A stretch of DNA of 64,000 nucleotides from Pseudomonadota bacterium. Its GTDB lineage: Bacteria; Pseudomonadota; Alphaproteobacteria; Acetobacterales; Acetobacteraceae. Each line of letters opens with the position of its first letter. Positions within the stretch are counted from its first letter, which is position 1. The notes beneath the pieces are model-generated. The model did not search any database and was not told the DNA's origin. It was given only the letters and a program-made list of their open reading frames with translations. Positions 25,542 to 58,384 of the stretch are shown here, piece after piece. The position numbers and the translations under genes are program-made. The stretch covers positions 111,432-175,431 of the forward strand of contig JAKADX010000001.1 in NCBI GenBank assembly GCA_021818505.1, written 5' to 3'.

Positions 25542-25937
25542 CTAGACGTCCCCGGGCCGCCGCCCCTCCGCATAACCGTGCCGCTCGAAATGCTCCAGCG
25601 CGGAGGTGACCGACCCCGTCTGGACGCTCTCGCGCACGTCGGGGTAGGTGTGCAGGTACCAGCCCTCATCCACTTCCATCGCGAACGGCCGCCTTCCCTC
25701 GAAATAGCCATGCTCGATGAAATGATGCCGGCCGCTGCGATAGGTGCCGGCACGGATCGCCTCGTCCACGTCGGGATAGGTGCGGCGATACCACGCCTCC
25801 TCGAACGGCAGGCTGCGCAGGAACAGTTTCACCAGATCAAGCAGTTCGTCATAGGTCATGTCGACCTTGAGCTGCCCCTTCAGTGACAGCAGCCGCACCG
25901 AGCCTTTCAGCACGGCAAACGGAGGCAGGTAGGTCAC
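25542..25937 (-). CDS. Small hypothetical protein with two copies of a WY..TYPDV...HF..HGY.EGRRP motif
   Basis: 131 aa. The GTG start overlaps the stop of the 1536-aa gene (GTGA). Repeat 1 is EEAWYRRTYPDVDEAIRAGTYRSGRHHFIEHGYFEGRRPF. Repeat 2 is DEGWYLHTYPDVRESVQTGSVTSALEHFERHGYAEGRRPG. Confidence 0.65.
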   Translation of the reverse strand: MTYLPPFAVLKGSVRLLSLKGQLKVDMTYDELLDLVKLFLRSLPFEEAWYRRTYPDVDEAIRAGTYRSGRHHFIEHGYFEGRRPFAMEVDEGWYLHTYPDVRESVQTGSVTSALEHFERHGYAEGRRPGDV

Positions 25938-28900
25938 GCGCGTCGCTCCTTCCGTCGGCGGCTCGCAGGGCGATGTTTAGTGATACTGACCGCCTCGCTC
26001 AGACGAGGCCCGCTCAAGCAAGGTTCGACCCGCGGCGGCGCGCGCAGCGCCAGCAGGCGGCGCGCCGTGCGCCAGACGTCGCCCACGCGGATGCCGCGCA
26101 GGCAGGCCAGCCCGCGATGGCAGTCGCGCGCAAAGGCCAGGTAACACGGGCTGCACGACATCTCCCGCCGCAACGCCATTGCGGCGGGGCCGAGCGGACC
26201 CCATTCGGTTGCATCGACGCTGCCGGAATGGATGGCCACCGTCGGCACACCGAGGGCGGCGGCGATGTGTTTGGGTCCGCTGTCGTTGCCGACATAGAGC
26301 GCGCAGGCGCGCAGCAGAACCGGCAGTTCGCCGAGCGCCAGGCTGCCGGCCAGCACCTTCACGCGCTCCGGCCGGCGCACCGCGTCGCGCACCGCCTCCG
26401 CGACCGGCGCTTCGTCCGGCCCGCCGATGATGACCGAATCGACGTCCGCTTCGGCCGTCATCAGGTCGATCAGGGCGGCGAAGTTTTCGGCCGGCCATTG
26501 CTTGTTCTCCGCGCCGGCGCCGGCATGGATCGCGACCAGCGGGCGCGCGAAGTCAAGCGCGGCGAGCGCGGGAAGCGCGGCGGCGGCCATGCGTGCATCA
26601 TCCGCGACCTGCCCATGTACGACGCGCCGGTCGGTGGCGCAGGCGCCGGCGACGGCATCGACAAAGGCCACCAGCGCCTCGCTGATATGCGCGCGCTTAT
26701 GCGTGCGCGCGAGATCGCCCTCCCACGCCACCGCGATATCGAGGAACGCGGTACGGTTGTCCTGATCGAAGCCGGCGAGCCAGCGTGCGCCGGTGTGCGG
26801 CAGCAGCATCCGCGTGTCCGGCTGGCGGCGCAGGTCGAGGGCAAGGTCGAAGCGGAATGGCGCGAGTTCCTCGCTGAGCGCATCAAGTTCGCGCTCGCCG
26901 ATGCTGCGCCGGCCATGTTCGGAAACCGCGTGGTAGAAGTCGAAACGGATGACGCGGTCGATCGCCGGCTCCAGATGCGCGAGCGCCTGCGAGGCGCCGG
27001 CGGCCAACACGCTCAGCTCGGCGTTCGGAAACGCCTGTTTGAGGCGGCGGAAGGCCGGGAAGGCAGCGATGAAGTCGCCGATATGATCGACCTTGACGGC
27101 GAGAATGCGTCGCACCTGATCTGCCGCGATCAGCGGATGGCCGATCGTCGACGCGCGCAGCGGCTCCTGGTCAGGCACGTAATCGTCGGTGTCCCGCGCC
27201 AGATGTGGGCTGAAATACGGATCGCCGGCGGCGAACAGGTCGCCCCAGCGGGCGCGGAAGCGGACGGTGTCGAAATCGTCGCCGAGTTCCGAGCGACTGG
27301 CCATCTCGTGATGAATGAGGCGCGCATAGGGCGTATAGATCACCGCCATCCCCGCCTCCCGCACGCGCAGGCAGTAGTCGAGGTCGTTGTTGATGACTGC
27401 GTGCTGCGCATCGAAGCCGCCGAGGCGCGCGAACACGTCGCGGCGCGTCAGCAGGCAGGCGCCGGTGACCGCGATGACGTTGCGCTGCGTCAGCGCCAGC
27501 CCGAACGGCCCCGGCTCGGTGGCGGGCGAAAAGCGGAAGGCATGGCGGCCAATGCTGCCGGCGAGGAACTGGCCGGCGTGCTGCACCTTGCCGTCGGGAT
27601 AGAGCAGCAACGGGCCGACCGCGCCGACCTCCGGCCGTCCCGCGTGTTCCAGCAGCGCGTCCAGCCAGCCATCCGCCGTCACTTCGATGTCGTCGTTGAG
27701 GAACAACAGGAAGTCGCCGCGCGCCCGCTCAGCCCCTTCGTTGTTGAAGCGTGACCAGTTGAACGGCCCGTCAATCGCGACGACGGTATCGGCATTGCCG
27801 CGCAGCCAGTCCTTCCAGCGCCCGGCGTCGGGCGCATCGGGAGGGATGTTGTCCAGTACGACGATTTCGATGCGCTCCGCCGGCGTGTGAGCGCGGATCG
27901 AGCGGATCGCGCCCTCCACCAGCCCCCGCGCGGCAGCGGTGGGAATGATGACCGAGACCCGTCCGGGTGCCGCCTGACGCCGCACCCGCCAGGTTCCGAG
28001 GATGCAGCCGACCTCGATCTCGGCCGTCACGCCGCGGCGGGCGAGCGCGCGCGATAGCGCGCGGCGCTCCGTGGCCGGCGGATCGAGCGCGCGGGCGCCG
28101 CGCGCGGCGAGCACCTTGGGGACGTGGCGGATCGTCGTCGCGGCCTCGGTCAGCCGCAGCACCAGATCGTACTCCCCATGTGCCGCCAGATCGCCCATCG
28201 TCGCGCCGACGCGCGCGAGCAACGCGGCCGTCGTGACCCACGGCCGCCCGATATAGTTGGTGGCGAGCAGCAGGTCGGGCGCGAAATCGGGCTTGAAGAA
28301 GGCCCGCGTCTCGCCGTCGGCCGGATCGACGCGCCGCTCATCGGCGTAGAGGAAGTCCGCACTCCGGTCGAGCGCGCTTTCCACCGCCAGTTCCAGCAGC
28401 GCGTCCTCGCCGAGTTCGTCGCCCGGCGCAAGCAGGCCGAACAGCCCTGGTCGATCCGGAGCCAACAGCCCGTCCAGCGGCGCCGCCGCGGCGTCCGCCA
28501 GCAGCCGCACGCGATCGGCGATCGGCAGCAATTCGTCCGGCAGGCTCGCCGCCGGGACCACCAGCGACCAGTCCCGCCAGGCCTGGCCGCGCAGGCTCTC
28601 CATCGTCGCCCGCAGGCGTCGGCGCTGTGCCGCGCTGTCGAGCGCGCCGACGAGCAGCAGCGTGAAGCCGGGACGCCAGTCGCAGGCGGCGAGCACCGCG
28701 TCGTGCAGGTCGATCTCCGCCTGCGGCATCTTGCGCCGCAGCGCCCATGGGCCGGCGCCGGGCAGGTCCGGTTCGCACTCGACGGCGAAGCCGATCTCCT
28801 GCACCAGCCCGGCGGCGTCGCGGATCACCACACGCACGACGTGCCGCCCGCGCGGCAGATTTTGCGGTGGGATCAGCATGGCGAAGCCGGCGTTCAGCGC

Positions 28901-30544
28901 CTGCTGCACCCCCAGCGCCTTGTGCAGGTCCTCGCGCCGGATGCCGCGATGCGCCTGGCCCAGCGAACGGCCATCGACGAACACCTCGATGCCCGCCAGC
29001 CCGGCAGCGGAGAACGCCCAGCCGGCCAGCGAGAGGAAGCCGCGCACGGTTTCGACCGCGCGGCCGTCGCGGATCGCCGGCTGGTCGAGGAAATAGCGGA
29101 TGCCCGCCTGCGATTCGCCGCTGGCGTCGAGTTCGGCGCCGCTGCCTTCGGCCCGCACCGGCACCTCCGCCTCGTGCTGCTCGCCGTCCCGTCCGCTGAC
29201 GACCAGGCGGACCAGGTGTTCGCCCTCGCACGCGCGGCCGAGCCGGGCGGTAAAGCGAAATCCACTGGTTCTGGCGGCAGCGTCGTCCGGGAACGCGAGT
29301 GCCACGTCGGGACGATCCTCGCCGAGTGTGGCCTCGCCCAGATCGGTCGCATCGAGATGCACGCGCAGGGACGCGGTGCCGGCGCGGCACAGCGCCCAGC
29401 CCTTCACGCGCAGCACGCCATCCTCGGTGAGCGCGGCGGAGTCACAGAAGAACCGCACCGACGCAGGTGCGGGCGGGGGCGGCGACGGCGATGCCGCGAC
29501 GACGAGCGGGGTCGTCGCGTCGCGCACCACGCCGCCGGCGGCGCTGACCACCGCGCGCGCGACCTGACCGGCGCGCGGGCGCTGCGGCAATTGCATGTGC
29601 AGGACGAAACCGCCCTGCGCCGAACCAGGATAGTCGGGATAGGCGAGGCCGACATCGGCGCGCGGCACCAGCAGTTCGGCCGCGCCCAGTTCGCGCTCGC
29701 CGAGATGGATGCGCACCTGCTCCAGCGGCGTCATGCTGACTGCCCAGCCACGCACGCGCAGCAGGCCGTCGGCATCGAGCTGCGCCTCCTCCAATGTCGC
29801 CAGCAGCGGCGGCGCGGCGGTCGCCTCGGCGCTGACGGCGATCCGATCGGTACAGGTGAGGCCAGCGCCGTCAGTCGCGATCGCGGTCAGATCACCGCAG
29901 GCCTGCCCGGGCGCCACGGCGCGACGCAGCGCGAAGCCGGCGAGCCGCGCATTTGGATACTGCGCCAGCGCCTCCGCCACGTCGCCGCGCGGCAGGCCGA
30001 TCTCCGCACGGCCGAGGGACTGTTCGCCGAGCCGGATCTCGATGCTGCGCAGCGGCCGCAACGCGACGCACCAGCCGCGCACGTGCAACTGGCCGGAGGA
30101 CGAAAGCCGCGCCTCCTCCAGCGTGATGCGCAGCGGCTCCGTCGCGCCGTCCTGCGGCGCCGGCACGGCCTCCGTCTCCTGCACCAGTTCGACCGCGACC
30201 GCGTGCTCGAACGCGCCCGCCCCAGTGCGCACCAGCAGGCGCAGCCGCGCCGGACCGGGGCGCGGGTCGCGCAATTCACAGTCGAACCGGAAACCGGGGA
30301 GAGCACGGCGCGCGGCGGCCGCGGTATCCGTCAGATCGGCGCGCAAAAGTCCCGTTTCGGCTTGCCCCAGTTCCGCGTCATCGAGGAACACGCCGATGGC
30401 GTCGATGGGTGCCGGCGCGAGGACCCAGCCGAAGCCGGCGAGCCGCCCGCGCAGCGGGATGCGCGCACCCTGCGCCGGTGCCTCCAGGACGAGCCGGAAC
30501 GTCCCGGCAGCGCCATCCGCGCCCTGCTGGCGCGGCCGTCTCAC
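25934..30544 (-). CDS. 1536-aa multidomain glycosyltransferase: five N-terminal repeats, degenerate GT2-like domain, GT2 domain and GT9 (heptosyltransferase-like) domain
   Basis: GT2: RVSVIIPTAAARG...IVVLDN...FLLFLNDDIEV...(aa ~860-1085). GT9: RRILAVKVDHIGDFIAAFPAFRRLKQAFPNAELSVL...YVGNDSGPKHIAAALGVPTVAIHS...CSPCY...C...C (aa ~1140-1500). GT2-like: FLYADERRVDP...FFKPDFAPDLLLATNYIGRPW (aa ~620-800). Confidence 0.8.
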   Translation of the reverse strand: MRRPRQQGADGAAGTFRLVLEAPAQGARIPLRGRLAGFGWVLAPAPIDAIGVFLDDAELGQAETGLLRADLTDTAAAARRALPGFRFDCELRDPRPGPARLRLLVRTGAGAFEHAVAVELVQETEAVPAPQDGATEPLRITLEEARLSSSGQLHVRGWCVALRPLRSIEIRLGEQSLGRAEIGLPRGDVAEALAQYPNARLAGFALRRAVAPGQACGDLTAIATDGAGLTCTDRIAVSAEATAAPPLLATLEEAQLDADGLLRVRGWAVSMTPLEQVRIHLGERELGAAELLVPRADVGLAYPDYPGSAQGGFVLHMQLPQRPRAGQVARAVVSAAGGVVRDATTPLVVAASPSPPPPAPASVRFFCDSAALTEDGVLRVKGWALCRAGTASLRVHLDATDLGEATLGEDRPDVALAFPDDAAARTSGFRFTARLGRACEGEHLVRLVVSGRDGEQHEAEVPVRAEGSGAELDASGESQAGIRYFLDQPAIRDGRAVETVRGFLSLAGWAFSAAGLAGIEVFVDGRSLGQAHRGIRREDLHKALGVQQALNAGFAMLIPPQNLPRGRHVVRVVIRDAAGLVQEIGFAVECEPDLPGAGPWALRRKMPQAEIDLHDAVLAACDWRPGFTLLLVGALDSAAQRRRLRATMESLRGQAWRDWSLVVPAASLPDELLPIADRVRLLADAAAAPLDGLLAPDRPGLFGLLAPGDELGEDALLELAVESALDRSADFLYADERRVDPADGETRAFFKPDFAPDLLLATNYIGRPWVTTAALLARVGATMGDLAAHGEYDLVLRLTEAATTIRHVPKVLAARGARALDPPATERRALSRALARRGVTAEIEVGCILGTWRVRRQAAPGRVSVIIPTAAARGLVEGAIRSIRAHTPAERIEIVVLDNIPPDAPDAGRWKDWLRGNADTVVAIDGPFNWSRFNNEGAERARGDFLLFLNDDIEVTADGWLDALLEHAGRPEVGAVGPLLLYPDGKVQHAGQFLAGSIGRHAFRFSPATEPGPFGLALTQRNVIAVTGACLLTRRDVFARLGGFDAQHAVINNDLDYCLRVREAGMAVIYTPYARLIHHEMASRSELGDDFDTVRFRARWGDLFAAGDPYFSPHLARDTDDYVPDQEPLRASTIGHPLIAADQVRRILAVKVDHIGDFIAAFPAFRRLKQAFPNAELSVLAAGASQALAHLEPAIDRVIRFDFYHAVSEHGRRSIGERELDALSEELAPFRFDLALDLRRQPDTRMLLPHTGARWLAGFDQDNRTAFLDIAVAWEGDLARTHKRAHISEALVAFVDAVAGACATDRRVVHGQVADDARMAAAALPALAALDFARPLVAIHAGAGAENKQWPAENFAALIDLMTAEADVDSVIIGGPDEAPVAEAVRDAVRRPERVKVLAGSLALGELPVLLRACALYVGNDSGPKHIAAALGVPTVAIHSGSVDATEWGPLGPAAMALRREMSCSPCYLAFARDCHRGLACLRGIRVGDVWRTARRLLALRAPPRVEPCLSGPRLSEAVSITKHRPASRRRKERRA
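28775..30502 (-). repeat. Five tandem, divergent protein-level repeats of ~105-118 aa in the N-terminus of the giant glycosyltransferase
   Basis: Shared pattern L.EA.L...G.L.V.GW.......L..V.I.L....LG.A..G..R.DV...(Y)P.....GF. Examples: LRITLEEARLSSSGQLHVRGWCVALRPLRSIEIRLGEQSLGRAEIGLPRGDVAEALAQYPNARLAGF, LLATLEEAQLDADGLLRVRGWAVSMTPLEQVRIHLGERELGAAELLVPRADVGLAYPDYPGSAQGGF, and VRFFCDSAALTEDGVLRVKGWALCRAGTASLRVHLDATDLGEATLGEDRPDVALAFPDDAAARTSGF. Two weaker flanking copies complete the set. Confidence 0.75.
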
Positions 30545-30783
30545 GGTCGGATCTTGCCCGCCAAAACCCGCGCAAGGTCGCCGACATTGTGCAGCGAATC
30601 GAGTTCCCGGGTGTGGAACTTGATGTTGTACTTTTCTTCCAGCGCAACAATGATCTCGATCTGCTTGAAGGAATCCCAGCCCGGCACGTCCTTCGCCGTC
30701 AGCGCGGGGCGCAGGTCCACGTCGCGCATGAACACATCGCGGAAGATCTCAGCCAAAACAGGATAGAATGCGGCTTCGCTCAT
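30541..30783 (-). CDS. Acyl carrier protein (stand-alone, non-FAS context)
   Basis: 80 aa. The phosphopantetheine-site context VPGWDSFKQIEIIVALEEKY is DS(L/F)-type. It starts 4 nt after the FkbH-like gene, and its stop overlaps the GTG of the giant GT (GTGA). Confidence 0.8.
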   Translation of the reverse strand: MSEAAFYPVLAEIFRDVFMRDVDLRPALTAKDVPGWDSFKQIEIIVALEEKYNIKFHTRELDSLHNVGDLARVLAGKIRP

Positions 30784-30787
30784 CGGA

Positions 30788-32686
30788 TCAGCCTTCTTTC
30801 ACGTCAATGAAGGTCTCGGCGCCGGTGAACGCGCGCAGATCAAGCGCGTAGCGCCGCGTCCCGTCGGCCTCCTCAACGGTGAGGCGAAACCCGAGACGGT
30901 CGTAATGGTCCTTCACCATGCCGTTCTTCTTCGTCGGAATGTATTCGCCGAGCAGCGTCGTGGCGCCGAGCGCAACCGCCTGATCGGCGATCAGGTTGAG
31001 GCTGGTCGGCTCGACCTGGCGGCCGAGCACGCGGCAGCTCATCAGCCAGGTGTCGATCAGCAGGTCGGCATCGTTCAGCATCCGGCCGATCAGGATGGCG
31101 ATGATGCCGTTGTCGCCGAAGCGATCGAGCAGCCGCAGTTGCAGGCCGAAGGCGCGCGGATCGGCGATGATCGCCAGCACGTCGTCCTCGGTGTGGCGGC
31201 GCGTTGTCAGATTGAACTGGTTGGTCTTGTTGATCAGTTGCACGGTGCGTTGCAGGCCGACGCGATCGAACCGCCGCCACAGCAACTGCATCTGAAGCCC
31301 GCGCAGATACGACGGCAGGTCGGTGGCGGCAGCGCGTAGCGCCTCGCGCGCGCGGTTACCCTGATACTGCGCGGCGCGGGCGCGGTCGTCGTCGGTGATC
31401 GCCACCGCCTCGAAATATCCGGCATCGGCCAGCGTCCGCGCGAACAGCGCCGGGTCGTCGCCGACCTCCGGCACAGCCACCATCGGCAGTTCCTGGCGCA
31501 CCAGGTTGCGCTCGAAGGGGTTGTCATCGACGAACACCAGCGCGTCCAGACCGATGTTCAGTTCCTGCGCGATGGCGCGGATGTTGGTCGCCTTATCGCC
31601 CCAGTTGGCGACGAAGCTGGCGATGTCGCCGCGCCGCAGCAGCATCTCGGGGTGCTTCGCGAACGGCTCCATGGCATCGGCCTCGTCGTTCTTCGAGCAG
31701 ACGGCGAGGATCACGCCGCGCCGCGACAGCTCGCGCGCGTAGTCCTGAAAGGCGATGTAAGCTTCGCCCAGCGCGCTGCCCTGGCCAAGCACCAGCCCTT
31801 CCAGCCCGTCATCGCCGACCACGCCGCCCCAGAGCGTGTTGTCGAGATCGAGCACGAGGCACTTGTACGATCGCCCCTGCCGGGCCGCGATCAGGCGCAT
31901 CAGCAACTCGCCATACATCGGCGCGGCCGCCGGCGACACTTCCTGCTTGGCACGGTGCCACAGCGCAGGATCGTGCCAGGCGTTGAGTCCGTCGAGCGCC
32001 GCGCGCGCATCCAGCGCCAGCAGGTCCACGCCCTCCGCCTCCGCCATCCGGCGCAGCTCCCCCGACAGCGCGGCGATGAAGGCGGCGCGCGAACCGGGTA
32101 GCCGCTGCTCATTGCTGCCGAGCAGCGCGGGATGCAGCGGCAGCGGCATCTGCTGGATGACCTGACAGGCGAAGGAATCGCGGATCGTGCGCCAGCAGTC
32201 GCGGATGCGCGCGGCGGTTTCCTGCAACGCCGCCGCCGCGTCCTCGTTCGTCATCGCCGATGAGACCCCGGCGGCGAGGTGATGCGCGTCCAGCGCCAGC
32301 AGCACCGCATTCGGTGCGAACGCGTGCAACGCCGAGCCGCGCTCGGCAAGTTCCTGCTGGTACTGGCCGAACTCGTTTTCGTAGATCGTCGCGTGCAGAC
32401 CGCGCCGTAGCGCCGCGACGCGGATGGCGGCGTGCAGGTGGGCGAAGGTGCAGGAACCGAGGATCGCCAGCCGCACCGGCTTGCCGATGGCGCCCGCCGG
32501 CACCGCGTCGCCGATCGCGCGGCGCAGCGTTTCGTCGAGCGCGTTGGTCCTGATGAAGTCGATCCGGGTGTTGGCCAGCGGGACCGCCGCATCCCATGCC
32601 GCCGCGGCATCGTCCGGCAGGCCCCGCAGCCGGCTGCGCCAGTCCGGCAGGTCCGGCAGCCAATACAATGCAGTCACGCCGCTCAT
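30788..32686 (-). CDS. FkbH-like HAD-IIIC family protein with a C-terminal GNAT-like region
   Basis: I take the start as MSGVTALYWLP at 32686 (632 aa). HAD motif I is KCLVLDLDNTLWGGVVGDDG. Other family motifs are AVCSKNDE, and VFVDDNPFER. The C-terminal ~170 aa (QLINKTNQFNLTTRR...GDNGIIA...MSCRVLGR) is typical of the FkbH/BF1531-like family. The upstream 86 codons of the track ORF look non-coding. Confidence 0.8.
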   Translation of the reverse strand: MSGVTALYWLPDLPDWRSRLRGLPDDAAAAWDAAVPLANTRIDFIRTNALDETLRRAIGDAVPAGAIGKPVRLAILGSCTFAHLHAAIRVAALRRGLHATIYENEFGQYQQELAERGSALHAFAPNAVLLALDAHHLAAGVSSAMTNEDAAAALQETAARIRDCWRTIRDSFACQVIQQMPLPLHPALLGSNEQRLPGSRAAFIAALSGELRRMAEAEGVDLLALDARAALDGLNAWHDPALWHRAKQEVSPAAAPMYGELLMRLIAARQGRSYKCLVLDLDNTLWGGVVGDDGLEGLVLGQGSALGEAYIAFQDYARELSRRGVILAVCSKNDEADAMEPFAKHPEMLLRRGDIASFVANWGDKATNIRAIAQELNIGLDALVFVDDNPFERNLVRQELPMVAVPEVGDDPALFARTLADAGYFEAVAITDDDRARAAQYQGNRAREALRAAATDLPSYLRGLQMQLLWRRFDRVGLQRTVQLINKTNQFNLTTRRHTEDDVLAIIADPRAFGLQLRLLDRFGDNGIIAILIGRMLNDADLLIDTWLMSCRVLGRQVEPTSLNLIADQAVALGATTLLGEYIPTKKNGMVKDHYDRLGFRLTVEEADGTRRYALDLRAFTGAETFIDVKEG

Positions 32687-32861
32687 GCCTCTGCGCCAAC
32701 AGCATCCTTGAAGCATCGCAGGCCGGCAAAAGCAACCGCGAAGGCCGCGGCGGCGATGGAAACGCAGTCCTGGACAGCAGCGCGACCAGTCAGTAACCTG
32801 TTCTCGACGGTAATCGGATCGAGTGGTTTTCGGACTGATCTGGCGTAGCGTACGCCGGACG

Positions 32862-34103
32862 ATGACCCGGGGGAGCATATTGATTCTGGCCAACGCTTCC
32901 CGCGTCGATGCGGACGGAGATAGGGATTCCGACTCCATCGGCAATGTTTACAAAGAGCTGCGCATCGACTTTTCCGCACGGGGCAACGGCGCGCCGTTCC
33001 GGCGGAGTGGCTGGTCCACCGCCGAGCCCGACGGCACCTGGTCGCTCGGCGGCGAAAGTCACATTGTGCTGCCGCCGCCGACGCACGTTGCGACGCATGT
33101 GCTGGTGCTGCAGATGCGCCCGATGGTCGCGGGCGCTGCAGTACCCGCGCAGCGGCTTCAGGTCCGCGTCAACGACGTGACGCTGGCGGACTTCCACATA
33201 GACCGCCGCACCACCCGCGCCTGCCGGATTCCGGTGCCGCTGCTGCGCCCGGGAGCGGAGCTGCGCATCGCCTTCGCGACACCCGACGCCGCCCGGCCCG
33301 CCGATCACGGCCAGGGCGATGACGATCGTGTGCTCGGCATCAACCTCGCGTCGCTGCATCTCTATCCCGACATCCATGAAAATGCGTGCGACGACGCGCT
33401 GCTCGACCGCGACGAGCCGGTGGCGGTGGACGCCGCCGCGGTAATGTCTGTCGAACAGATGAATCTACCCGACCTGATGCTGACGTTCGAGAGCCTGGGC
33501 CAGAACTGCGAGTTCGGCCTGGTGCAGCGCAAGTGCGGCGCGGAGCCGCTCGGCCTCCTTCGCTTCTCGTCCACGCCGCTGATGCCGCTGCTCGAGGCGC
33601 TGGACGCGCGCTTCGCCGGCATGGGCGCGCCGGAGAGCATCAGCGTCGATCTCTCGCCGAATGGCCGGGAATACATGGTCACCGACCGCCGCTTCGGTTT
33701 CACCTACCACGCCTGGGTCAACGCCGGGGAAATGCATCCCGAGGACATCATGCGGCGCGAGGCGCGGCGCGTGCCGTTCTTGGTGCGCAAGCTGATCGAG
33801 GACCTGGAGAGCGGCCAGAAGACCTTCGTGTTCAAGGGTATGGGACCGATCACGGAGGAAGAAGCGTTCCCCCTCGCCATGGCGATCCGCCGCTACGGAC
33901 CCAACCGGCTGCTGCTGGTCAACCCGGCCGAAGCCGGGCAACGCGTTGGAGCGGTGGCGGCGCGTGCGCCCGGATTCATGGTCGGCTATGTCGATCGCTT
34001 CGCCCCCGGCGACAATGCGCACGATCTGTCGCTCGGAAGCTGGGTGAAGGTCTGCCGGGAAGCACACCGATTGCGGGTCATGGCGCAGTCGGCCCGGCGA
34101 TAG
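32862..34103 (+). CDS. Hypothetical two-domain protein, divergent from the FkbH operon
   Basis: 413 aa from ATG 32862. The N-terminal part has a GW..AEPDGTWSLG motif. The C-terminal part begins FESLGQNCEFGLVQRKCGAEPLGLLRF, which is reminiscent of DUF1796-type (papain-fold-like) proteins. That is a recollection, not a verified match. Confidence 0.6.
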   Translation: MTRGSILILANASRVDADGDRDSDSIGNVYKELRIDFSARGNGAPFRRSGWSTAEPDGTWSLGGESHIVLPPPTHVATHVLVLQMRPMVAGAAVPAQRLQVRVNDVTLADFHIDRRTTRACRIPVPLLRPGAELRIAFATPDAARPADHGQGDDDRVLGINLASLHLYPDIHENACDDALLDRDEPVAVDAAAVMSVEQMNLPDLMLTFESLGQNCEFGLVQRKCGAEPLGLLRFSSTPLMPLLEALDARFAGMGAPESISVDLSPNGREYMVTDRRFGFTYHAWVNAGEMHPEDIMRREARRVPFLVRKLIEDLESGQKTFVFKGMGPITEEEAFPLAMAIRRYGPNRLLLVNPAEAGQRVGAVAARAPGFMVGYVDRFAPGDNAHDLSLGSWVKVCREAHRLRVMAQSARR

Positions 34104-37523: not shown

Positions 37524-40500
37524 GTGAGACGGCTGGCTGGTCAAGCCGCGCGACATGGCGGGCGACTCGCCCACGCGCTGGCGCAGTTCGCCCTGGCGCT
37601 GCTGGTGGCGCTCTGCGTGGCGCTGGCGGCGATCGCATGGCGGCTGTCGCGCGGGCCGCTGGAACTGGCCTGGCTTGCCCCGATGGTGCAGACCCAGATC
37701 AACGACGACGCTCCGGCGCGCCTGACACTGGGCGGGGCCGCCATCGCCTGGGAGGGGTTCTTCGCCGGGCTGGACCAGCCGCTCGATATCCGGCTGACCG
37801 ATCTGGCGCTGACCGATCCGGCGGGACGGCACGTGCTGCGCGTGCCACGCGCCACGCTGGCGCTGTCGCCCGGCTGGCTGCTGCTCGGCCGGCTGGTGCC
37901 GCGCGCGGTGGAACTGGACGGCGTGCGGCTGCACCTGGTGCGCGCGACCGACGGCACGCTCGGCCTCGATCTGGCTGAGCAGCCTGCGACGGGCGGCGGG
38001 CCTGTCGATTTGCAGGGACTGCTGGCCGAGCTGTCGGCCCGGCCGATGACCGACGTCTCCGCCGGCGGTTGGTCGTCGCGCTGGAGCCAGTTGCGGCGGG
38101 TGCGCATCGCGGATTCCGCGCTTGACGTGACCGATCGCAGCCTCGCGGTGGATTGGCAGGCACGCGCGGTCGAAATCAACCTGCGACGACAGGCCGGCGG
38201 CGGGGTCAGCGGCAGCGTCTCGGCGGCGCTGGCGGTCGGCCATATCGATGCTCGGCTGACGGCCGGTGCGATGCTTGCCCCGGGCGGGCAACAGACCCTC
38301 GTGACCTTTCACCTCAGCCAAATCGACCCGGCGGCGCTGGCGCGGGTGGTGCGGCCAGCCGCGCCGCTGGCAGCGCTGGCGGCGCCGGTGGCGCTGTCGG
38401 GCGATGTGCGGCTCGGACCCGATCTGGCGCCGGCGGAGTTCACGCTCGCCGCCGAGGTCGGTGCCGGGACTCTGCGTCTTGGGAAGGGCACGGCGCCCAT
38501 CGTCGCGGCGCAGGCAACAGTGCGCGGCACGCCGACGCACCTCGTCGCCGACCTCGCCCGGCTGGTAACCGCGCCGCGGCCGGACGGCGCGCGCACGACG
38601 CTGACCGGCCACGCCGAGGCGACGCGCGACGGAGCGGGGGTGACGGCGACGGCCACGGTCGCCCTCGACCGCGTCGCCTTCGCCGACCTGCCGGCGCTCT
38701 GGCCCGAGGGTCTCGGCGGCCCGGGAACGCGACCCTGGATCGTCGCCAATGTCACCGACGGCATCGCGCAGGATTTTCACGTCGCGCTTGCCCTGACCGC
38801 CCCGCCAGATCTGTCCGACGTGACGCTGACACGGATCGCCGGCGGCGGCGTGGGCCACGACCTGACCGTCCACTGGCTGCGCCCGGTGCCGCCGATCGTG
38901 CATGGGGAAGCCCAGGTCAGCTTTCGCGACGCCGATTCGCTCGAAGTAGTTGCAACCGCCGGGCGCGAGCTGCTCGGGCGCGACGCGATCGCGCTGCGCA
39001 GCGGACGCGTGCTGTTCACCGGGCTGAGCGCGAAGGATCAGTTCGCCGACATCACCGCCGATCTTGCCGGATCGGTGCCGGCAGCCCTGGCGCTGCTGGG
39101 CCAGAAGCGGATCGGCCTGCTGCAGAAAAGTCCGGTGCAGGTGCAGGGCGCGGCTGGGCAGTTCGCGGGCCGCATCACGCTCGCGCATCTGCCGCTGCGC
39201 GACGACGTACGGCTGGATGACCTGCAGACCCGCGCGGCACTGAAGCTGACCGACGCGCGCGTGACAGGCATCGTCGCCGGGCGCGACCTGGACCATGGGA
39301 TGCTTGACTTGACTGCCGACCCGGACGGGATGCGCGTCTCCGGGCAGGCGTCACTGGCTGGGCTGCCGGCCACGCTCGACGCCAGACTCGACTTCCGTGC
39401 GGGCCCACCCGCGCAGGTGCTACAGGACATCACCCTCGCCGCCGCAATTGATGATGCGCGGCTTGCCGCATTCGGCATCGACACGGCCGGCGTGGCCAGC
39501 GGCACGGCGCAGGTGAACGCGCGGCTCGCGCTGCGGCGCGATCGCAGCGGCCAGGCCAATGTCACGGCCGATCTTGCCGGGATGGCGCTGACGTTGGAGG
39601 CGCTGGACTGGCGCAAGCCCCGCGGCCAGCCGGCACAGGCGCAGGCGCAACTGGTGCTGAAGGGGAACACCCTTATCTCGCTGGATTCATTGCTGGCACA
39701 GGGCCAGGAACTCGAGCTGCGGGGCGCGGCGAGTTTCACCGGCGGGCGGCCCGACCTGCTGCGCATCGACCGCCTGGTGCTCGGCCGGGACACCGACCTG
39801 CACGGCACGCTGCGCCCACCGCAGCAGCCGGGCGAGCCGTGGCGCGCCGATCTGGCCGGACGCAGCATCGACCTGGCCGGTGCGCTGAAGCGACGGCCAC
39901 AGACGCCGCCGAAGGGTCCGCAGAAGCCGGGGCCGCCGTATCGCGTGGACGCGCGCTTCGACCGGGTCGCCTTCGGCCCCGGCCGCGAGGCCGCCGCGGT
40001 CACCGCCCATGCCGAGAGCGACGGCAGCATCCTGCAACGCCTGACAATCGGCGGTCAGACGACGGGAGCACGTGCCTTCCGCCTGGAGATCGAGCCGCAG
40101 GGCAGCAGGCGGCGGCTGGCCGGCAGCGCGGCGGATGCCGGCGCGTTGCTGCGCGTTCTCGACATCTATCCCGACATGACCGGAGGGCGGCTGTCGCTGT
40201 CCGGGACTTATGACGATGCAGCCGCGGGCCACCCCCTCGATGGTCGTGTCGAGATTGTCGATTTCCGCGTCCGCCGGGCACCGGTGCTGGCCAAGCTGCT
40301 GGAGGCAATGACGCTGTACGGCGTACTCGATCTCGTGCGCGGACCGGGCCTCGGCTTCTCGCAACTGGTGCTGCCATTCACGCTCGCCGCGGACCGGCTG
40401 GACCTGCGCGACGCGCGGGCGTTCAGCCCGAGTCTGGGCATGACCGCCAAGGGGCGCATCGACCTGGCCCGCCAGACAGTGGATCTGCAGGGCACCATCG

Positions 40501-40712
40501 TGCCGGCGTATTTCTTCAATTCGCTGCTCGGGAATCTGCCGATCGTCGGGCGGCTGTTCAGCCCCGAGCGCGGCGGCGGCCTGTTCGCGGCGACCTACAC
40601 GCTGCGCGGCCCACTGATGGACCCGGACGTATCCGTGAACCCGCTGGCGGCGCTGACACCGGGCTTCCTGCGCGGCTTGTTCGGCCTGTTCGACCACGAG
40701 ACGACACCGTGA
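37524..40712 (+). CDS. AsmA-like / YhdP-type (DUF3971-like) giant envelope protein
   Basis: 1062 aa. N-terminal TM anchor FALALLVALCVALAAIAW, then a long beta-rich Ala/Gly/Leu/Thr/Asp-rich body. The C-terminal block GTIVPAYFFNSLLGNLPIVGRLFS...GGGLFAATYTLRGPLMDPDVSVNPLAALTPGFLRGLF is typical of AsmA-like C-termini. Confidence 0.7.
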   Translation: MRRLAGQAARHGGRLAHALAQFALALLVALCVALAAIAWRLSRGPLELAWLAPMVQTQINDDAPARLTLGGAAIAWEGFFAGLDQPLDIRLTDLALTDPAGRHVLRVPRATLALSPGWLLLGRLVPRAVELDGVRLHLVRATDGTLGLDLAEQPATGGGPVDLQGLLAELSARPMTDVSAGGWSSRWSQLRRVRIADSALDVTDRSLAVDWQARAVEINLRRQAGGGVSGSVSAALAVGHIDARLTAGAMLAPGGQQTLVTFHLSQIDPAALARVVRPAAPLAALAAPVALSGDVRLGPDLAPAEFTLAAEVGAGTLRLGKGTAPIVAAQATVRGTPTHLVADLARLVTAPRPDGARTTLTGHAEATRDGAGVTATATVALDRVAFADLPALWPEGLGGPGTRPWIVANVTDGIAQDFHVALALTAPPDLSDVTLTRIAGGGVGHDLTVHWLRPVPPIVHGEAQVSFRDADSLEVVATAGRELLGRDAIALRSGRVLFTGLSAKDQFADITADLAGSVPAALALLGQKRIGLLQKSPVQVQGAAGQFAGRITLAHLPLRDDVRLDDLQTRAALKLTDARVTGIVAGRDLDHGMLDLTADPDGMRVSGQASLAGLPATLDARLDFRAGPPAQVLQDITLAAAIDDARLAAFGIDTAGVASGTAQVNARLALRRDRSGQANVTADLAGMALTLEALDWRKPRGQPAQAQAQLVLKGNTLISLDSLLAQGQELELRGAASFTGGRPDLLRIDRLVLGRDTDLHGTLRPPQQPGEPWRADLAGRSIDLAGALKRRPQTPPKGPQKPGPPYRVDARFDRVAFGPGREAAAVTAHAESDGSILQRLTIGGQTTGARAFRLEIEPQGSRRRLAGSAADAGALLRVLDIYPDMTGGRLSLSGTYDDAAAGHPLDGRVEIVDFRVRRAPVLAKLLEAMTLYGVLDLVRGPGLGFSQLVLPFTLAADRLDLRDARAFSPSLGMTAKGRIDLARQTVDLQGTIVPAYFFNSLLGNLPIVGRLFSPERGGGLFAATYTLRGPLMDPDVSVNPLAALTPGFLRGLFGLFDHETTP

Positions 40713-41917
40713 TGCGCTGGGACCTGAATCACGTGATCGCCTATGGCCAGTCGCTCTCGACCGGCTGGGATGGACTGCCGCTGCTCGACAGCGCGCCCGT
40801 CGCCGACTGCCTGATGCTCGGCGGCAGCGTACGCCCGGCCGAGGAGGCGGCACCGCGCTTCCTGCCGGTCGGTCCCGCCGTGTTCCGCCCGCTGACGGCG
40901 ACCGCGCAGGGATCGCTCGGCACCACCGTGGTCGAATCGGCGCTGGGATACTGGCGGCGGCGCATGGGGGCGACGGCGCGCGGCGCCGGCTGGCTGCTCG
41001 GCAGCGCCTGCGGTGTCGGGGGGCGCACGATGGAGGCACTGTCGCGTGGCGCCGTGCCGGAACTTTTCAACCGCCTGCGCGAGTGCGCCGGCCGCGCAGG
41101 CGCGGCCGCGGCCGAGGCCGGCCTGACCCACGGCGTCGCCGCGCTGCTGCTGCTGCAAGGGGAGAGCAACGTTGCGGGTGAAGGCACGCGCGACCGCACC
41201 GACTACAAGGCGCTGCTGCTTCGGCTGCTGGACGACATCGCGGCGGAATGGGGCGGGCTGCCGCCGGTGCTGATCGGCCAGACCAGCGGCGCCTATGCCC
41301 ATGATGACATGGGCGTGCCCCAGGCGCAGCTCGACGCCGCGCTGGAACGCCCCGGCGTGTTCCTGGCAACCCCGACCTATCCCTACCCGGAGCGGAACGG
41401 CCATCCCGACGCCAACGGCCAGCGCTGGCTTGGCGCGCAATTCGGCAAGGTGCTGCACCGGGCGCTGACACTCGGCGACGCATGGCGCCCCTTGCATCCG
41501 CTCGGCGTGGAGCGGCGGGGCGACGTATTGCATGTGCGATTTCACGTCCCCTGCCCACCGCTCGTCCTGGGGCGGCCGTTCGTCGGCCAGGCGCGGGCCG
41601 CTATCGCCGATGCCGGATTCACCGTGGCCGACGCGCAAGGGCCAGTGCCGCTCGCTGCCGTCGCACTCGACGGCGGCGTCGAAGTACGGCTGATGCTGGC
41701 CCGCCCGCCGCGGCCCGGACCACTGACTTTGCGCTACGCCGACCTCGGCCATCGCGGTCGCGGGGCGCTGCACGACAGCGATCCGGCCTGCGCAGACGAA
41801 TGTTTCGATACCCGTTTCCGCGGCGCGCTTTACCCTGAGTCCGACGCTGCCGCGCTGCACGGCGTCGCTTACCCGCTGCGCAACTGGTGCGTAGCATTCG
41901 TCATGCCAGTGCTATGA
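40709..41917 (+). CDS. SGNH-type carbohydrate esterase, sialate O-acetylesterase-like (DUF303/SASA-like)
   Basis: 402 aa. N-terminal AYGQSLSTG (GQSN-type nucleophile block), LLLQGESN (QGESD-type block) and GHPDANGQRWLGAQFG (His block). Its ATG overlaps the AsmA-like stop (ATGA). Confidence 0.55.
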   Translation: MMRWDLNHVIAYGQSLSTGWDGLPLLDSAPVADCLMLGGSVRPAEEAAPRFLPVGPAVFRPLTATAQGSLGTTVVESALGYWRRRMGATARGAGWLLGSACGVGGRTMEALSRGAVPELFNRLRECAGRAGAAAAEAGLTHGVAALLLLQGESNVAGEGTRDRTDYKALLLRLLDDIAAEWGGLPPVLIGQTSGAYAHDDMGVPQAQLDAALERPGVFLATPTYPYPERNGHPDANGQRWLGAQFGKVLHRALTLGDAWRPLHPLGVERRGDVLHVRFHVPCPPLVLGRPFVGQARAAIADAGFTVADAQGPVPLAAVALDGGVEVRLMLARPPRPGPLTLRYADLGHRGRGALHDSDPACADECFDTRFRGALYPESDAAALHGVAYPLRNWCVAFVMPVL

Positions 41918-46092: not shown

Positions 46093-46512
46093 ATGTTCCC
46101 TCGTTCCGGCCGCAATGCTCCGCCGGGGCGCGCCGGTCGTCAGCCGTCCTTCAAGGCTAGCGCGAATGTAAGCCGCTTCGTCGTTGGCGCCGCGATCACT
46201 CTTGTGGTTTTGATCCCCGCCGTCGCGCCGGCGCAGGATTATCGCGCACCGGTACCGGGCGGCGATCTGCCGGCAGGATCGTCGGTGCCGCTGCCCGACG
46301 GGACACGACAGCGTTATGTTGGACCGCATTTCGATGCACAGGGGAGATACGTGCCGCCGCACTACGAAGGTCCCAAGAAATTGCCGTTCCGCGGCTACTT
46401 TCAGGCCGACGAGGTGGCGCGCGCGGCGCAGAAGCAACGCGGCTACGCCGAGACGCCGCCCGACTACACGACGCCGGACAATACCCCGGACAAGAAAGTG
46501 GAGGGCCGCTGA
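46093..46512 (+). CDS. Small hypothetical secreted protein
   Basis: 139 aa from ATG 46093. Hydrophobic segment RFVVGAAITLVVLIPAVAPAQD, then a Pro/Tyr/Asp-rich region. Start and reality are uncertain. Confidence 0.4.
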   Translation: MFPRSGRNAPPGRAGRQPSFKASANVSRFVVGAAITLVVLIPAVAPAQDYRAPVPGGDLPAGSSVPLPDGTRQRYVGPHFDAQGRYVPPHYEGPKKLPFRGYFQADEVARAAQKQRGYAETPPDYTTPDNTPDKKVEGR

Positions 46513-46516
46513 TCGC

Positions 46517-47521
46517 ATGGACGGCGTGCAGACCGCGATGGCGGCAAACGCGGCGCTCACGGCGCCGCCGCCGACGCTGGTCGCGACGCCGGCGCTGTTG
46601 ACTGTCGTGGTCTGCACCCATGCCCGCCCGCATTATCTTGCCACCTGCCTCGCCGCCCTGGCCGCCAATTCCCGCGCCGACAAGTCCGCCGGCGAGTGGA
46701 GCGTGATCGTCGTGGACAGTGCCTCTCCGGCCGCGGCGGCGGCGGAGAACGCCGTGCTGGCGGCAGCACACGGGGCACAGCTGCTGCGCATGGACGAACC
46801 AGGGCTGTCGATTGCACGCAATGCAGGGCTGGACGCGGCGCGTACGCCCTGGATCGCCTATATCGACGACGACGCGGCTGTTGCCCCCGACTGGGTCAGC
46901 GCCATCGCGGCCACGGTTGCGCGCCTTCCGCCGCGCGCCGCGGCCCTCGGCGGGCCGATCGTACCGGCGTGGGAGGCGCCCTGCCCCCCCTGGTGGCCCG
47001 ACGAACTCATCCCGGCACTGACCGTGTTGAACTGGGGCAGCGCGGGTCGCGTCGGTGACGGGCACATGCCGGCGCATGTCGAGCCGTATGGCGCCAACAT
47101 GGTCTTCCGGACCGCCGCGCTGCGCGCCGTCGGCGGCTTCCCGCCCGAACTCGGCCGCATCGGGGCGAAGTTGCTGTCGGGCGAGGAGGCCTGGGTCATG
47201 CGCGCGCTGCGCAGCGCGGGGCACGACATTCATTACGATCCGACGATCAGCGTCACGCACAGCATCCAGGCGGCACGCCTGACGCCCGCGTGGCTGCTGC
47301 AGCGGCAGTTCTGGAGCGGCGTGTCGGAAGCAATCGTGGCCGTCCGTCTGGATGGGCGCCGGCGCGCGTCCGCCAAGGCGCTGCGCATGGCGCTGCACGC
47401 CGTGGCGCGCGCGCCGCTGGCGGCCTGGCCGGTCAACAGCCCGGCGATGATCCGCCAACGCTGCGCCTACGCTTTCGCCTCAGGTTACGTACGCGGGTTG
47501 GTCGGCGCGGTGCGCCGCTGA
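46517..47521 (+). CDS. Glycosyltransferase family 2
   Basis: 334 aa from ATG 46517. LLTVVVCTHARPHYL...VIVVDSAS...GLSIARNAGL...WIAYIDDDA. Confidence 0.8.
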   Translation: MDGVQTAMAANAALTAPPPTLVATPALLTVVVCTHARPHYLATCLAALAANSRADKSAGEWSVIVVDSASPAAAAAENAVLAAAHGAQLLRMDEPGLSIARNAGLDAARTPWIAYIDDDAAVAPDWVSAIAATVARLPPRAAALGGPIVPAWEAPCPPWWPDELIPALTVLNWGSAGRVGDGHMPAHVEPYGANMVFRTAALRAVGGFPPELGRIGAKLLSGEEAWVMRALRSAGHDIHYDPTISVTHSIQAARLTPAWLLQRQFWSGVSEAIVAVRLDGRRRASAKALRMALHAVARAPLAAWPVNSPAMIRQRCAYAFASGYVRGLVGAVRR

Positions 47522-48925
47522 CGCTGCGGCCACGGCGGCCTCACGTTCCAGTTCCGCGCGAGCGAACACGGCGGACACCCAGGCGAACATCACGCTCGCG
47601 GTCGCCGCGATCAGCGTGTTGTCTGTGGCAGAATGGATGGCGAAGGCAATGAACACGGCGCGCATGATGAACCGATCGGTGCGCGGGGCGTGACGCGTCC
47701 AGGTGATCGCCCACACCGCCATCAGCAGGATCAGCAGTCCGAGCCCGACATAGCCGCCGTCCACACCCATGCGCAGATACTCGTTGTGCGCGGCCACAGT
47801 GCCGAGCAGGTGGGCAAGCAGTGAGTCCGGATCGACCACGTTCTTGCCGGCGCCGATCCCCCAGCCGAACATCGGCGATGCATCCCAGGCCCGCCTGAAC
47901 AGCGGCCAGATCAGGTCGCGGCCGCTCAGGCTCTCGGCGTGGTTGGAGAGCACGTTGAGCAGGCGGATGCCGCTTGATCCGGTGGCCAGAGCCGCCAGGA
48001 CCGGCAGTGCCAGCATCCCGAACAGCACCATCGGCAGCCGCCGGCGCATCGGGAACGGCTGGGAGCGGAGGAAGAAAAACACGACCGCCGTCACCCCAAG
48101 CGCGCCAGCGAGCGGCGCGCGCGCGCCCGACAGCCCGAGGATGACGTAGTTGATCACGATCGCAACGAGATGGCGCGGTCGCCCGTCGCGATATAACTCG
48201 ACCAGGGCGGCGTATATCGCTATCGCGGCAAATCCGCCAAGGAAGGCCGGATGCGTTGAACCCGCGAGCCGGAACGCGCCGGCCTCGCTGGTGAACAGCG
48301 GGCGATAATGCACCAGCGCCAGCACCGCGCCGAAGCCGACGATGAACGACGGAACCCAGATGGTCGTATTGATGATCGCGTTGCACCAGCGCCGCGACAG
48401 GCGCGAGAAGGAGAACGCGAACGGCGCGGCCGAGCCGATCAGCGAACGCACGCTGTCGATCACCGTCAGCGTCGGCCAAAGGCCGTGCGCGAGCCCGGTC
48501 ACAAACATGAACAGGAACGCGAATGATGGATTGAACCGGTCCAGGCGCGCGCCGTACCTGACCATGCAGACGACCAGAAGCGCCAGCCCGAGAACCTTGA
48601 CGACCGCGGTGATGACCCCGCCCTGGCCGGTCACGTCGCCGATCCACATTTCCGGACTGCTCCCCGCGAGCAGCAGCCACGCGACCGAGGTCACGACCGG
48701 CGCGCTGATCACCGGAACCGCCACGCAGAGCAGTGTTCCGGCGGCAAGGAACAGCGGCAAGAAGCGAATATTGTAGAGTGAGCCGGCCAACATCGCGAGA
48801 AGGAAGCCACCGCCGGCGACCAGCAGGAACCCATAGAGTTCGCCGCCAGGATCAACCAGCGCCGGCGGCGCGGCTCCACGACGGCGTGACTGCCCCTTTG
48901 CCAACTGCGATGCCGACATCCTCAC
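47480..48925 (-). CDS. O-antigen ligase/polymerase family (Wzy_C-like) membrane protein, probable EPS polymerase
   Basis: 481 aa, more than 10 TM segments, family motif AHNEYLRMGVDGGYVGLGLLIL. Confidence 0.7.
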   Translation of the reverse strand: MRMSASQLAKGQSRRRGAAPPALVDPGGELYGFLLVAGGGFLLAMLAGSLYNIRFLPLFLAAGTLLCVAVPVISAPVVTSVAWLLLAGSSPEMWIGDVTGQGGVITAVVKVLGLALLVVCMVRYGARLDRFNPSFAFLFMFVTGLAHGLWPTLTVIDSVRSLIGSAAPFAFSFSRLSRRWCNAIINTTIWVPSFIVGFGAVLALVHYRPLFTSEAGAFRLAGSTHPAFLGGFAAIAIYAALVELYRDGRPRHLVAIVINYVILGLSGARAPLAGALGVTAVVFFFLRSQPFPMRRRLPMVLFGMLALPVLAALATGSSGIRLLNVLSNHAESLSGRDLIWPLFRRAWDASPMFGWGIGAGKNVVDPDSLLAHLLGTVAAHNEYLRMGVDGGYVGLGLLILLMAVWAITWTRHAPRTDRFIMRAVFIAFAIHSATDNTLIAATASVMFAWVSAVFARAELEREAAVAAASAAHRADQPAYVT

Positions 48926-48955
48926 CTGCCCCCGCGCAGCCGCGCGGGCCGGCGG

Positions 48956-58360: not shown

Positions 58361-58384
58361 CCGAGCCACGCGCCAGGCCCGGGA

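Follow-up and report, generated by a model that had tools for sequence, protein, structure and literature searches.

A giant GT2–GT9 glycosyltransferase, its 131-residue partner and a lineage-specific FkbH/carrier-protein pair: a putative ADP-heptose-dependent glycan synthase

ADP-heptose, made by HldE and HldD, is the donor substrate of the heptosyltransferases WaaC and WaaF. Two sinks for it are established, the inner core of lipopolysaccharide (LPS) and the heptosylation of autotransporters, and it also acts as an innate-immune agonist. Here we analyse a four-gene operon on the minus strand of a 64 000-nucleotide (nt) stretch of an Acetobacteraceae genome (GenBank assembly GCA_021818505.1, contig JAKADX010000001.1, positions 111,432 to 175,431; this whole stretch is the window in what follows). 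The operon encodes an FkbH-like enzyme, a dedicated acyl carrier protein (ACP), a glycosyltransferase (GT) of 1536 amino acids (aa), which we refer to as the giant GT, and a protein of 131 aa.

The LPS enzymes WaaC, WaaF and WaaQ share with the giant GT the GT-B fold of family GT9 and the motifs KxxxxGD and GNDSGPxH, and structures and models of this type (PDB 3TOV, 1PSW and 2GT1; NCBIfam) are the best matches of its GT9 domain. A reaction at the cytoplasmic face, as catalysed by WaaC and WaaF, needs no dedicated exporter, and the same would hold for the module described here. Unlike in the LPS enzymes, the GT9 domain occupies the last quarter, at the C-terminus, of a polypeptide of 1536 aa, which is accompanied by a 131-aa partner and has an accessory, mobile distribution. 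TibC and Aah (the BAHT family) are likewise soluble GT9-fold enzymes without an exporter of their own, and use cytoplasmic ADP-heptose to modify repeat-containing proteins. In contrast to them, the giant GT has no detectable similarity to TibC and carries an extra GT2 domain; no autotransporter substrate gene lies in the operon or recurs in the related loci. Several GT domains on one soluble or peripheral cytoplasmic polypeptide are also found in K4CP, WbdA and WbbB. The first, GT-A-like domain of the giant GT, unlike that of K4CP, appears to lack a metal-binding DxD, and a GT9 (GT-B) domain provides the second active site. The K4CP, WbdA and WbbB systems come with Wzm/Wzt or Kps ABC transporter genes, which the operon lacks.

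The FkbH-like and ACP genes recall the glyceryl-ACP loading systems of FkbH and OzmB (methoxymalonyl-ACP and tetronate pathways), with which they share the FkbH domain, the DxDxT motif and a small ACP encoded immediately downstream. Unlike in those pathways, no polyketide synthase (PKS), tailoring or condensing enzymes are encoded nearby; the partners are glycosyltransferase and ADP-heptose genes. NodF, RkpF and AcpXL are dedicated alphaproteobacterial ACPs that, as here, are encoded beside glycoconjugate genes. They carry fatty or polyketide chains made by ketosynthases, whereas the sole loader here is FkbH-like, or is missing altogether in some relatives.

An earlier note on this DNA, made from the letters alone, had called the layout non-textbook, and we agree: the literature, NCBIfam and the PDB yielded neither a characterised counterpart nor a prior assignment to a characterised pathway. 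The parts come from known families; the architecture of the giant GT, its small partner, a heptose linkage outside the LPS core and the association with FkbH and an ACP appear to be uncharacterised. If true, heptose glycobiology would gain a new branch: a third consumer of ADP-heptose, widespread in Acetobacteraceae, Rhodospirillales and Bradyrhizobium. The repeated association with FkbH and an ACP suggests that a glycan is decorated or primed by way of a carrier protein, of which we found no characterised FkbH example. The system is experimentally tractable, with three cultured carriers: Rhodopila globiformis DSM 161, Gemmobacter lutimaris YJ-T1-11 and Bradyrhizobium sp. USDA 3650.

The giant glycosyltransferase and its operon

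The four open reading frames (ORFs) of the operon were confirmed in the order FkbH-like enzyme, ACP, giant GT and small gene. They are listed here with the domains of the giant GT and with div413, the divergent neighbour of the FkbH-like gene:

30788..32686, minus strand: FkbH-like enzyme, 632 aa, three domains (FkbH_N, HAD-IIIC phosphatase and FkbH C-terminal)
30541..30783, minus strand: dedicated ACP, 80 aa
25934..30544, minus strand: giant GT, 1536 aa
28763..30466, minus strand: giant GT residues 27–594, five tandem beta-sandwich modules of ~110 aa each (module hidden Markov models, AlphaFold model)
27971..28732, minus strand: giant GT residues ~605–858, putative degenerate GT-A-like domain (structure model)
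27215..27970, minus strand: giant GT residues 859–1110, GT2 (GT-A) domain (Pfam, Foldseek)
26051..27109, minus strand: giant GT residues 1146–1498, GT9 (heptosyltransferase-fold, GT-B) domain (Pfam, PDB)
25542..25937, minus strand: small gene, 131-aa helical partner protein
32862..34103, plus strand: div413, conserved hypothetical protein of 413 aa, transcribed divergently from FkbH

Five repeats followed by degenerate GT2-like, GT2 and GT9 domains had been proposed for the giant GT. Domain searches (Pfam and hidden Markov models, HMMs) and the structure model agree with this architecture, the degenerate domain being recognized by structure only. The repeats span residues 27–132, 137–243, 245–358, 361–466 and 485–594, and each of three module HMMs recovers all five copies (i-E-values ≤ 1e-12). 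An AlphaFold model that covers residues 1–1145 (pLDDT 83.5) consists of five beta-sandwiches followed by two alpha/beta domains; Foldseek aligned the all-beta N-terminal modules with chains of macroglobulin-type domains, and there is a weak Big_7 match. Residues ~605–858 have no Pfam match. They are modelled with alpha/beta secondary structure (pLDDT ~90), and the tandem GT-A region aligns over 554 columns with the chondroitin polymerase K4CP (2z86), which has two GT-A domains. Because hhalign gave only E = 0.033 against the protein's own GT2 domain, the assignment rests on the structure model, and we accept these residues as a probable degenerate GT-A-like domain on structural grounds only. 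In this weak alignment, PGDE (G708 and D709 invariant) takes the place of the NDD motif of the GT2 domain.

The GT2 domain matches PF00535 (40.8 bits vs. 23.3, residues 864–1040) and PF13641 (34.9 bits). Its LFLNDD motif (D951, D952) is invariant across 40 homologues, and N1053-D1054-x-D1056 is invariant too; the best Foldseek matches of the GT-A fold are polypeptide GalNAc-transferases, which reflects generic GT-A similarity. The GT9 domain matches PF01075 (94.3 bits vs. 22, residues 1223–1467), with K1151, G1156-D1157, the GNDSGPKH motif and a C-terminal cysteine cluster (C1464, C1467, C1475 and C1481) invariant. Its best PDB match is 3TOV (5.8e-17, 312 residues aligned), followed by WaaF and WaaC; TibC chains were not among the PDB matches even at E ≤ 10. 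The domain is nearer to LPS-type heptosyltransferases than to TibC, and a TibC-type protein heptosyltransferase was rejected at the sequence level. Public names of the giant GT are generic, for example 'ADP-heptose:LPS heptosyltransferase/GT2 family glycosyltransferase'.

The genes are tightly packed on one strand with stop/start overlaps, and the ORFs, coordinates and junctions all agree with the earlier description. The TGA stop codon of FkbH is followed by a 4-nt gap (tccg) and then by the ATG of the ACP gene, as read from the sequence. The ACP stop and the giant GT start share GTGA. A second GTGA joins the end of the giant GT to the small gene, whose start is preceded by AGGAG 8 nt upstream. 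The ATG of rpsB lies at 25338, 203 nt downstream of the end of the small gene (25542). NCBI gene calls on contig DAIEMG010000097.1 of the metagenome-assembled genome GCA_027349795.1 give the same four products, of 632, 80, 1536 and 131 aa. Stoichiometric co-expression, previously deduced from the overlaps, is plausible, but the overlaps are not conserved and relatives have gaps of 6–104 nt at some junctions. No sigma-70-like promoter was found in the operon region, and no terminator-like hairpin between the small gene and rpsB; such sites occur in the region at chance level (3 found, 3.5 expected). A terminator-like hairpin with a T-rich tail is located at 32735–32751 (minus strand) in the 5' leader, ~50 nt upstream of the FkbH ATG. 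Rfam gave no match anywhere in the window, and no rpsB leader was detected. The G+C content of the window is ~70%. Recent horizontal transfer judged by composition was rejected, since the operon (0.68–0.74) has the G+C content of its flanks. No transmembrane segments are predicted in the four operon products or in the div413 product, and all five proteins look soluble.

Conserved partners and linkage to ADP-heptose genes

Scanning one genome per species found hundreds of relatives of the giant GT, and many soil alphaproteobacteria have the module. We fetched 93 loci, 68 of which are distinct and encode a full-length GT2+GT9 protein; individual loci are given L numbers below. Carriers belong to the Acetobacteraceae (Rhodopila globiformis DSM 161, Acidisphaera), other Rhodospirillales, Stellaceae and Defluviicoccus, and include Gemmobacter lutimaris and Bradyrhizobium sp. 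USDA 3650. Counts of neighbours within 3 kb are based on the 46 loci whose flanks extend for 3 kb or more in both directions. Genes near the giant GT were as follows:

131-aa protein: 48 of 68 loci; within 3 kb in 32 of 46
hldE: 36 of 68 loci; within 3 kb in 27 of 46
cysQ-type gene: 28 of 68 loci; within 3 kb in 17 of 46
FkbH: 9 of 68 loci (7 of them close relatives); within 3 kb in 6 of 46
ACP: 7 of 68 loci; within 3 kb in 4 of 46
hldD: 5 of 68 loci; within 3 kb in 2 of 46

The earlier note had treated the four genes as one functional unit. This does not extend to the relatives: the pair conserved across the 68 loci is the giant GT and the small protein, often with hldE or hldD. Judged from gene content, the conserved core is the giant GT plus the 131-aa protein, commonly accompanied by ADP-heptose genes. 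When neighbouring ORFs were clustered across loci, only hldE, the small protein and cysQ were recurrent; no exporter, flippase, polymerase or initiating phosphoglycosyltransferase recurred among the neighbours in the 93 fetched loci. The heptose genes are well identified in NCBIfam (HldE: NF008454, 482 bits, and TIGR02199 above its cut-off; HldD: TIGR02197, 384 bits vs. 274.6). hldE occurs in at least five arrangements: divergent in the Rhodopila type, upstream and co-oriented in L006 and L008, downstream in L031 and in L087, and as part of an operon on L091. In L006, hldD stands between the giant GT and the small gene, and across loci the small gene is found on either side of the giant GT. 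The 4-nt overlap between these two genes is seen in the window, in Bradyrhizobium sp. USDA 3650 (order GT–small–hldE) and on a JGI contig.

FkbH and the ACP are confined to the sub-clade of the window, where they are co-operonic with giant GT, small-protein and heptose genes in four gene orders (the window, L004 and L093; L006 and L008; L031; L091). A gene of the div413 family (~390–413 aa) usually accompanies the block, and two relatives keep div413, the ACP, the giant GT and a small gene without FkbH. On this distribution, FkbH and the ACP are best described as a sub-clade accessory, a putative loading cassette added in this lineage.

Single loci show further variation. L091 (1–21363) is a plasmid-like contig on which an FkbH–ACP–hldD–small–hldE operon is followed by parB/parA, the giant GT, RepA_C, PemK/MazE and a resolvase; from this contig the module appears to be mobile. 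A CysQ-type 3'(2'),5'-bisphosphate nucleotidase (TIGR01331, 254 bits vs. 228.8) is encoded immediately after the giant GT, in the same orientation, in 28 loci, with examples among L010–L072 at L068:14627–15400 and L028:14548–15258, and L084 also has a sulfotransferase gene 3.4 kb downstream. This linkage could be Acetobacteraceae synteny or a hint of sulfation. L086 (1799–14662) holds two divergent, paralogous giant GT2+GT9 genes (1479 and 1553 aa); the interval between them holds a GT61 gene, three short ORFs that lack annotation and a 129-aa homologue of the small protein. In Bradyrhizobium sp. USDA 3650 (L087:13187–18784), a 681-aa Sel1-repeat protein (14 repeats), an HlyD/AprE-type adaptor and a C39-peptidase ABC transporter are encoded near GT–small–hldE, and a pyruvyl transferase gene of this locus carries one copy of the small-protein repeat.

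The small protein has a unique N-terminal stretch of 45 aa followed by two copies of a ~43-aa repeat (WY..YPDV..A...G...S...HF...GY.EGR.P). Members of its family are nearly always 131 aa long, and 20 columns are invariant in a 29-sequence alignment. An AlphaFold2 model (pLDDT 91.1, pTM 0.82) is all-helical, with eight helices and two three-helix repeats. The protein has no Pfam or NCBIfam match even at E ≤ 5, and Foldseek of the model against the PDB gave a best E of 6.4; sequence and profile searches of the PDB with the small protein and div413 gave nothing below E = 0.06. The profile of the small protein, in turn, matches 13,880 cluster representatives (E ≤ 1e-3); the proteins reach 3401 aa in length, and as many as 31 stretches are matched in one protein. 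The sole Pfam signal of this repeat family consists of sub-threshold partial matches to DUF5338. The 131-aa partner gives access to a helical-repeat family that is very large and unannotated, with neither a Pfam model nor a structural relative in the PDB. Sampled carriers of the repeat fall into two classes, cytoplasmic multi-domain glycosyltransferases (GT2+GT4) and large proteins with Calx-beta, cadherin-like, RTX, lectin, NHL or FG-GAP domains. Four loci have no stand-alone small gene (L020, L021, L033 and L074); the next gene there encodes a GT2–GT4 protein with 2–4 detected repeat copies. We suggest that the repeat is a docking or glycan-binding module. A glycocin-like peptide, an idea prompted by the small helical protein, the GT2 domain and a C39 transporter, was rejected: such a transporter is near the module only in the Bradyrhizobium locus, and the alignment contains no double-glycine leader.

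The FkbH-like protein scores 297 bits with TIGR01686 (cut-off 146.65), 54.3 bits with TIGR01681 (vs. 35.75) and 36.7 bits with PF21211 (FkbH_N; vs. 27, E = 5.5e-9). HAD motif I (DxDxT) is present in the translation as DLDNTLW, and the only solved relative is PDB 3SLR (Bacteroides fragilis BF1531, uncharacterised; 6e-66). With a domain score above the curated cut-off, motif I and an adjoining ACP, the protein is, by sequence, a member of the FkbH family. The ACP matches PF00550 (PP-binding; 25.5 bits, cut-off 20.8). Its GWDSFKQIEI segment, which includes the predicted phosphopantetheinyl residue Ser38, is invariant in 10 orthologues, and a mean column identity of 76% exceeds the conservation of the giant GT. 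div413 has no match in Pfam, NCBIfam (even at E ≤ 5) or the PDB. Its family has at least 945 members of ~385 aa, found on contigs that also encode the small protein and the giant GT, and lies divergently upstream of FkbH or the ACP in L004/L088, L046, L071, L092 and L093 and on a JGI contig. The operon is flanked by div413, bcp and glnE on one side and by rpsB on the other; no polyketide-type genes (FkbG/I/J/K tailoring enzymes, a FabH-like condensing enzyme or a PKS) flank it or occur in the related loci. L092 (1500–9155) is a distant relative in which a 496-aa protein with a Phage_tail_beta Pfam match occupies the FkbH position. It retains the ACP, a shorter giant GT (1333 aa) and a divergent div413-family gene, and an adjoining 133-aa ORF does not match the small-protein profile.

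A putative glycan synthase and its alternatives

The reading we favour, tentatively and at slightly less than an even chance, is a cytoplasmic ADP-heptose-dependent glycan synthase made up of the giant GT and the small protein, with a product that is decorated via glyceryl-ACP in this lineage. Gene structure, domain identities, conservation and the genomic link to hldE and hldD are observed; the donors, the order in which the steps occur, what the small protein does, the glyceryl chemistry and the identity of the acceptor are inferred. The five beta-sandwich modules would form a scaffold, the GT-A-like domain is predicted to be non-catalytic, and the GT2 and GT9 domains are predicted to be active. 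The GT9 domain would transfer heptose from ADP-heptose and the GT2 domain would add a second sugar from a nucleotide sugar, so that together they could make a heptose-containing oligo- or polysaccharide. The small protein may dock on the giant GT and present or retain the acceptor, and in some relatives a repeat-bearing GT2–GT4 protein seems to substitute for it. In this lineage, FkbH is predicted to turn 1,3-bisphosphoglycerate into glyceryl-S-ACP on the dedicated ACP, and the C3 hydroxyacyl unit would be passed to the glycan, possibly by the terminal domains of FkbH or by div413. An acceptor that needs no dedicated exporter is most likely, because none of the relatives has a primer transferase, a flippase or an ABC exporter that travels with the module. 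For this reason, and because the GT9 domain resembles LPS-type enzymes, our first choice would be an inner-leaflet glycolipid such as lipid A-core.

Several observations weigh against this proposal. LPS core transferases are normally single-domain proteins of ~350 aa, unlike the multidomain giant GT, and its GT9 domain scores below all LPS-heptosyltransferase equivalog cut-offs (TIGR02195, 102.1 vs. 134.6; TIGR02201, 86.4 vs. 170.2; TIGR02193, 72.9 vs. 185.3). The accessory, mobile distribution, with variable contexts and one plasmid-like contig, fits an essential inner-core step poorly. A general link to lipid A genes was dropped, as only 2 of the fetched loci, apart from the window, have lpxA, lpxD or bamA within 10 kb. 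Evidence for the heptose link comes from relatives, the 64-kb window itself containing no hldE, hldD or gmhA/B. FkbH and the ACP are not near the giant GT in 59 of the 68 loci and are therefore unnecessary for the core reaction; because two relatives have the ACP without FkbH, the ACP-borne unit need not be glyceryl.

The strongest competitor, which we consider rather unlikely, is cytoplasmic protein glycosylation, in which the giant GT would heptosylate protein substrates, and extend them with a second sugar, before their export, in the manner of TibC and Aah. The 131-aa protein would then be a substrate-recognition adaptor, or a mimic of an acceptor repeat on secreted adhesin-like proteins. 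All components being soluble, and no lipid-carrier primer or exporter travelling with the module, such a system is conceivable, and large proteins of typical secreted types, with Calx-beta, cadherin-like, RTX, lectin and FG-GAP domains, carry the repeat in their thousands. The Bradyrhizobium module lies 3 kb from the genes for the C39-peptidase ABC transporter, the HlyD-type protein and the Sel1-repeat protein, and GT61 genes adjoin the module in two loci. Protein binding could be a role of the beta-sandwich modules and of the inactive GT-A domain, and the GalNAc-transferases that head the GT-A fold matches act on polypeptides, though that similarity is generic. However, the giant GT shows no sequence similarity to TibC-type heptosyltransferases at the threshold given above, and no candidate substrate gene recurs beside the module. 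The repeat is also fused to cytoplasmic GT2–GT4 enzymes, which is easier to reconcile with docking or glycan binding than with a role as acceptor, and its family is far more widespread than the giant GT.

A more radical idea, to which we give little credence, would be a new carrier- or adaptor-guided cytoplasmic glycosylation machine. The helical repeat would here be a docking or acceptor tag that is read by the beta-sandwich modules, and a heptose-containing glycan would be built on repeat-bearing proteins or on glyceryl-S-ACP. If true, such a tag-guided machine would extend the use of ADP-heptose beyond the LPS core and autotransporters.

Equally improbable, in our judgement, is mere adjacency, in which FkbH, the ACP and div413 would belong to a separate pathway, for example to a glycerate-derived lipid or metabolite, and the overlaps would reflect compact packing. 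The GT–small pair does occur without FkbH or ACP in the large majority of loci (59 of 68), the div413 family is much bigger than the giant GT family in a like search (at least 945 matches), and the exact overlaps are not conserved even in the closest relatives. Against this stands the persistence of FkbH and the ACP beside GT, small-protein or heptose genes in four gene orders, including the plasmid-like L091. A linkage that is shuffled yet retained is hard to explain other than by shared function. Both sampled div413 relatives (P0373 and P0292) again adjoin an ACP and a giant GT.

Least probable of all is assembly on the carrier protein, with glyceryl-S-ACP as a primer on whose hydroxyls GT2 and GT9 would build before release as a glycosyl-glycerate or transfer to a final acceptor. 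In its favour, the ACP is unusually conserved and lies directly upstream of the giant GT in 8 of 11 ACP-containing loci (GTGA-coupled in the window), no other primer or acceptor-making enzyme is present and all parts are cytoplasmic. Most giant GT loci, however, have no ACP or FkbH nearby, so that the family as a whole cannot work in this way. In L006/L008 and L091 the ACP and the giant GT are not neighbours, and we know of no precedent for GT2 or GT9 glycosyltransfer onto a carrier-protein-bound acceptor.

Surroundings of the operon

The operon had been described as wedged in front of rpsB and as interrupting a very conserved neighbourhood there. We find it instead at the edge of the conserved rpsB-tsf-pyrH-frr-uppS-cdsA-dxr-rseP-bamA-lpxD-fabZ-lpxA block, not within it. 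Comparison with relatives, which the earlier note had proposed for the region upstream of rpsB, showed that the operon is present in relatives, but adjacency to rpsB was seen only in this genome. L004/L088 and L093 retain the order glnE-bcp-(div413)-FkbH-ACP-GT-small and differ in the downstream genes, and in L071 rpsB is 6 kb away. From this synteny, glnE marks the side on which the unit is anchored, and its position next to rpsB is specific to this genome.

As had been noted, there is no flippase, polymerase or ABC exporter in the operon, but a complete Wzx/Wzy-type polysaccharide locus is located elsewhere in the window, at 46316–59903, ~14 kb upstream of the operon:

46316–47521: GT2
47480–48925: Wzy_C/O-antigen-ligase-like protein
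49269–51635: Wzc-like kinase (GNVR+AAA_31)
51625–53178: Bac_transf initiating transferase
53661–55241: Wzx-like flippase
55208–56347: Acyl_transf_3 protein
57788–58360: Poly_export/SLBB protein
58443–59903: BBP2_2 beta-barrel porin

The G+C content of this locus (0.63–0.67) is below the values found elsewhere in the window. Between this locus and the operon lie housekeeping genes, and the linkage is not shared by the related loci inspected; the two may be functionally connected in this organism.

Two further gene pairs of the window were recorded. A 582-aa protein with a Hint_2 domain (5897–7645) is encoded next to a 799-aa circularly permuted ATP-grasp/Alpha-E protein (3474–5873). At 37524–41917, divergent from glnE, are genes for a YhdP-like protein of 1062 aa and a SASA-like protein of 402 aa (sialate O-acetylesterase family, weak match); the glnE-bcp-YhdP-SASA arrangement is kept in L093 (12578–17061).

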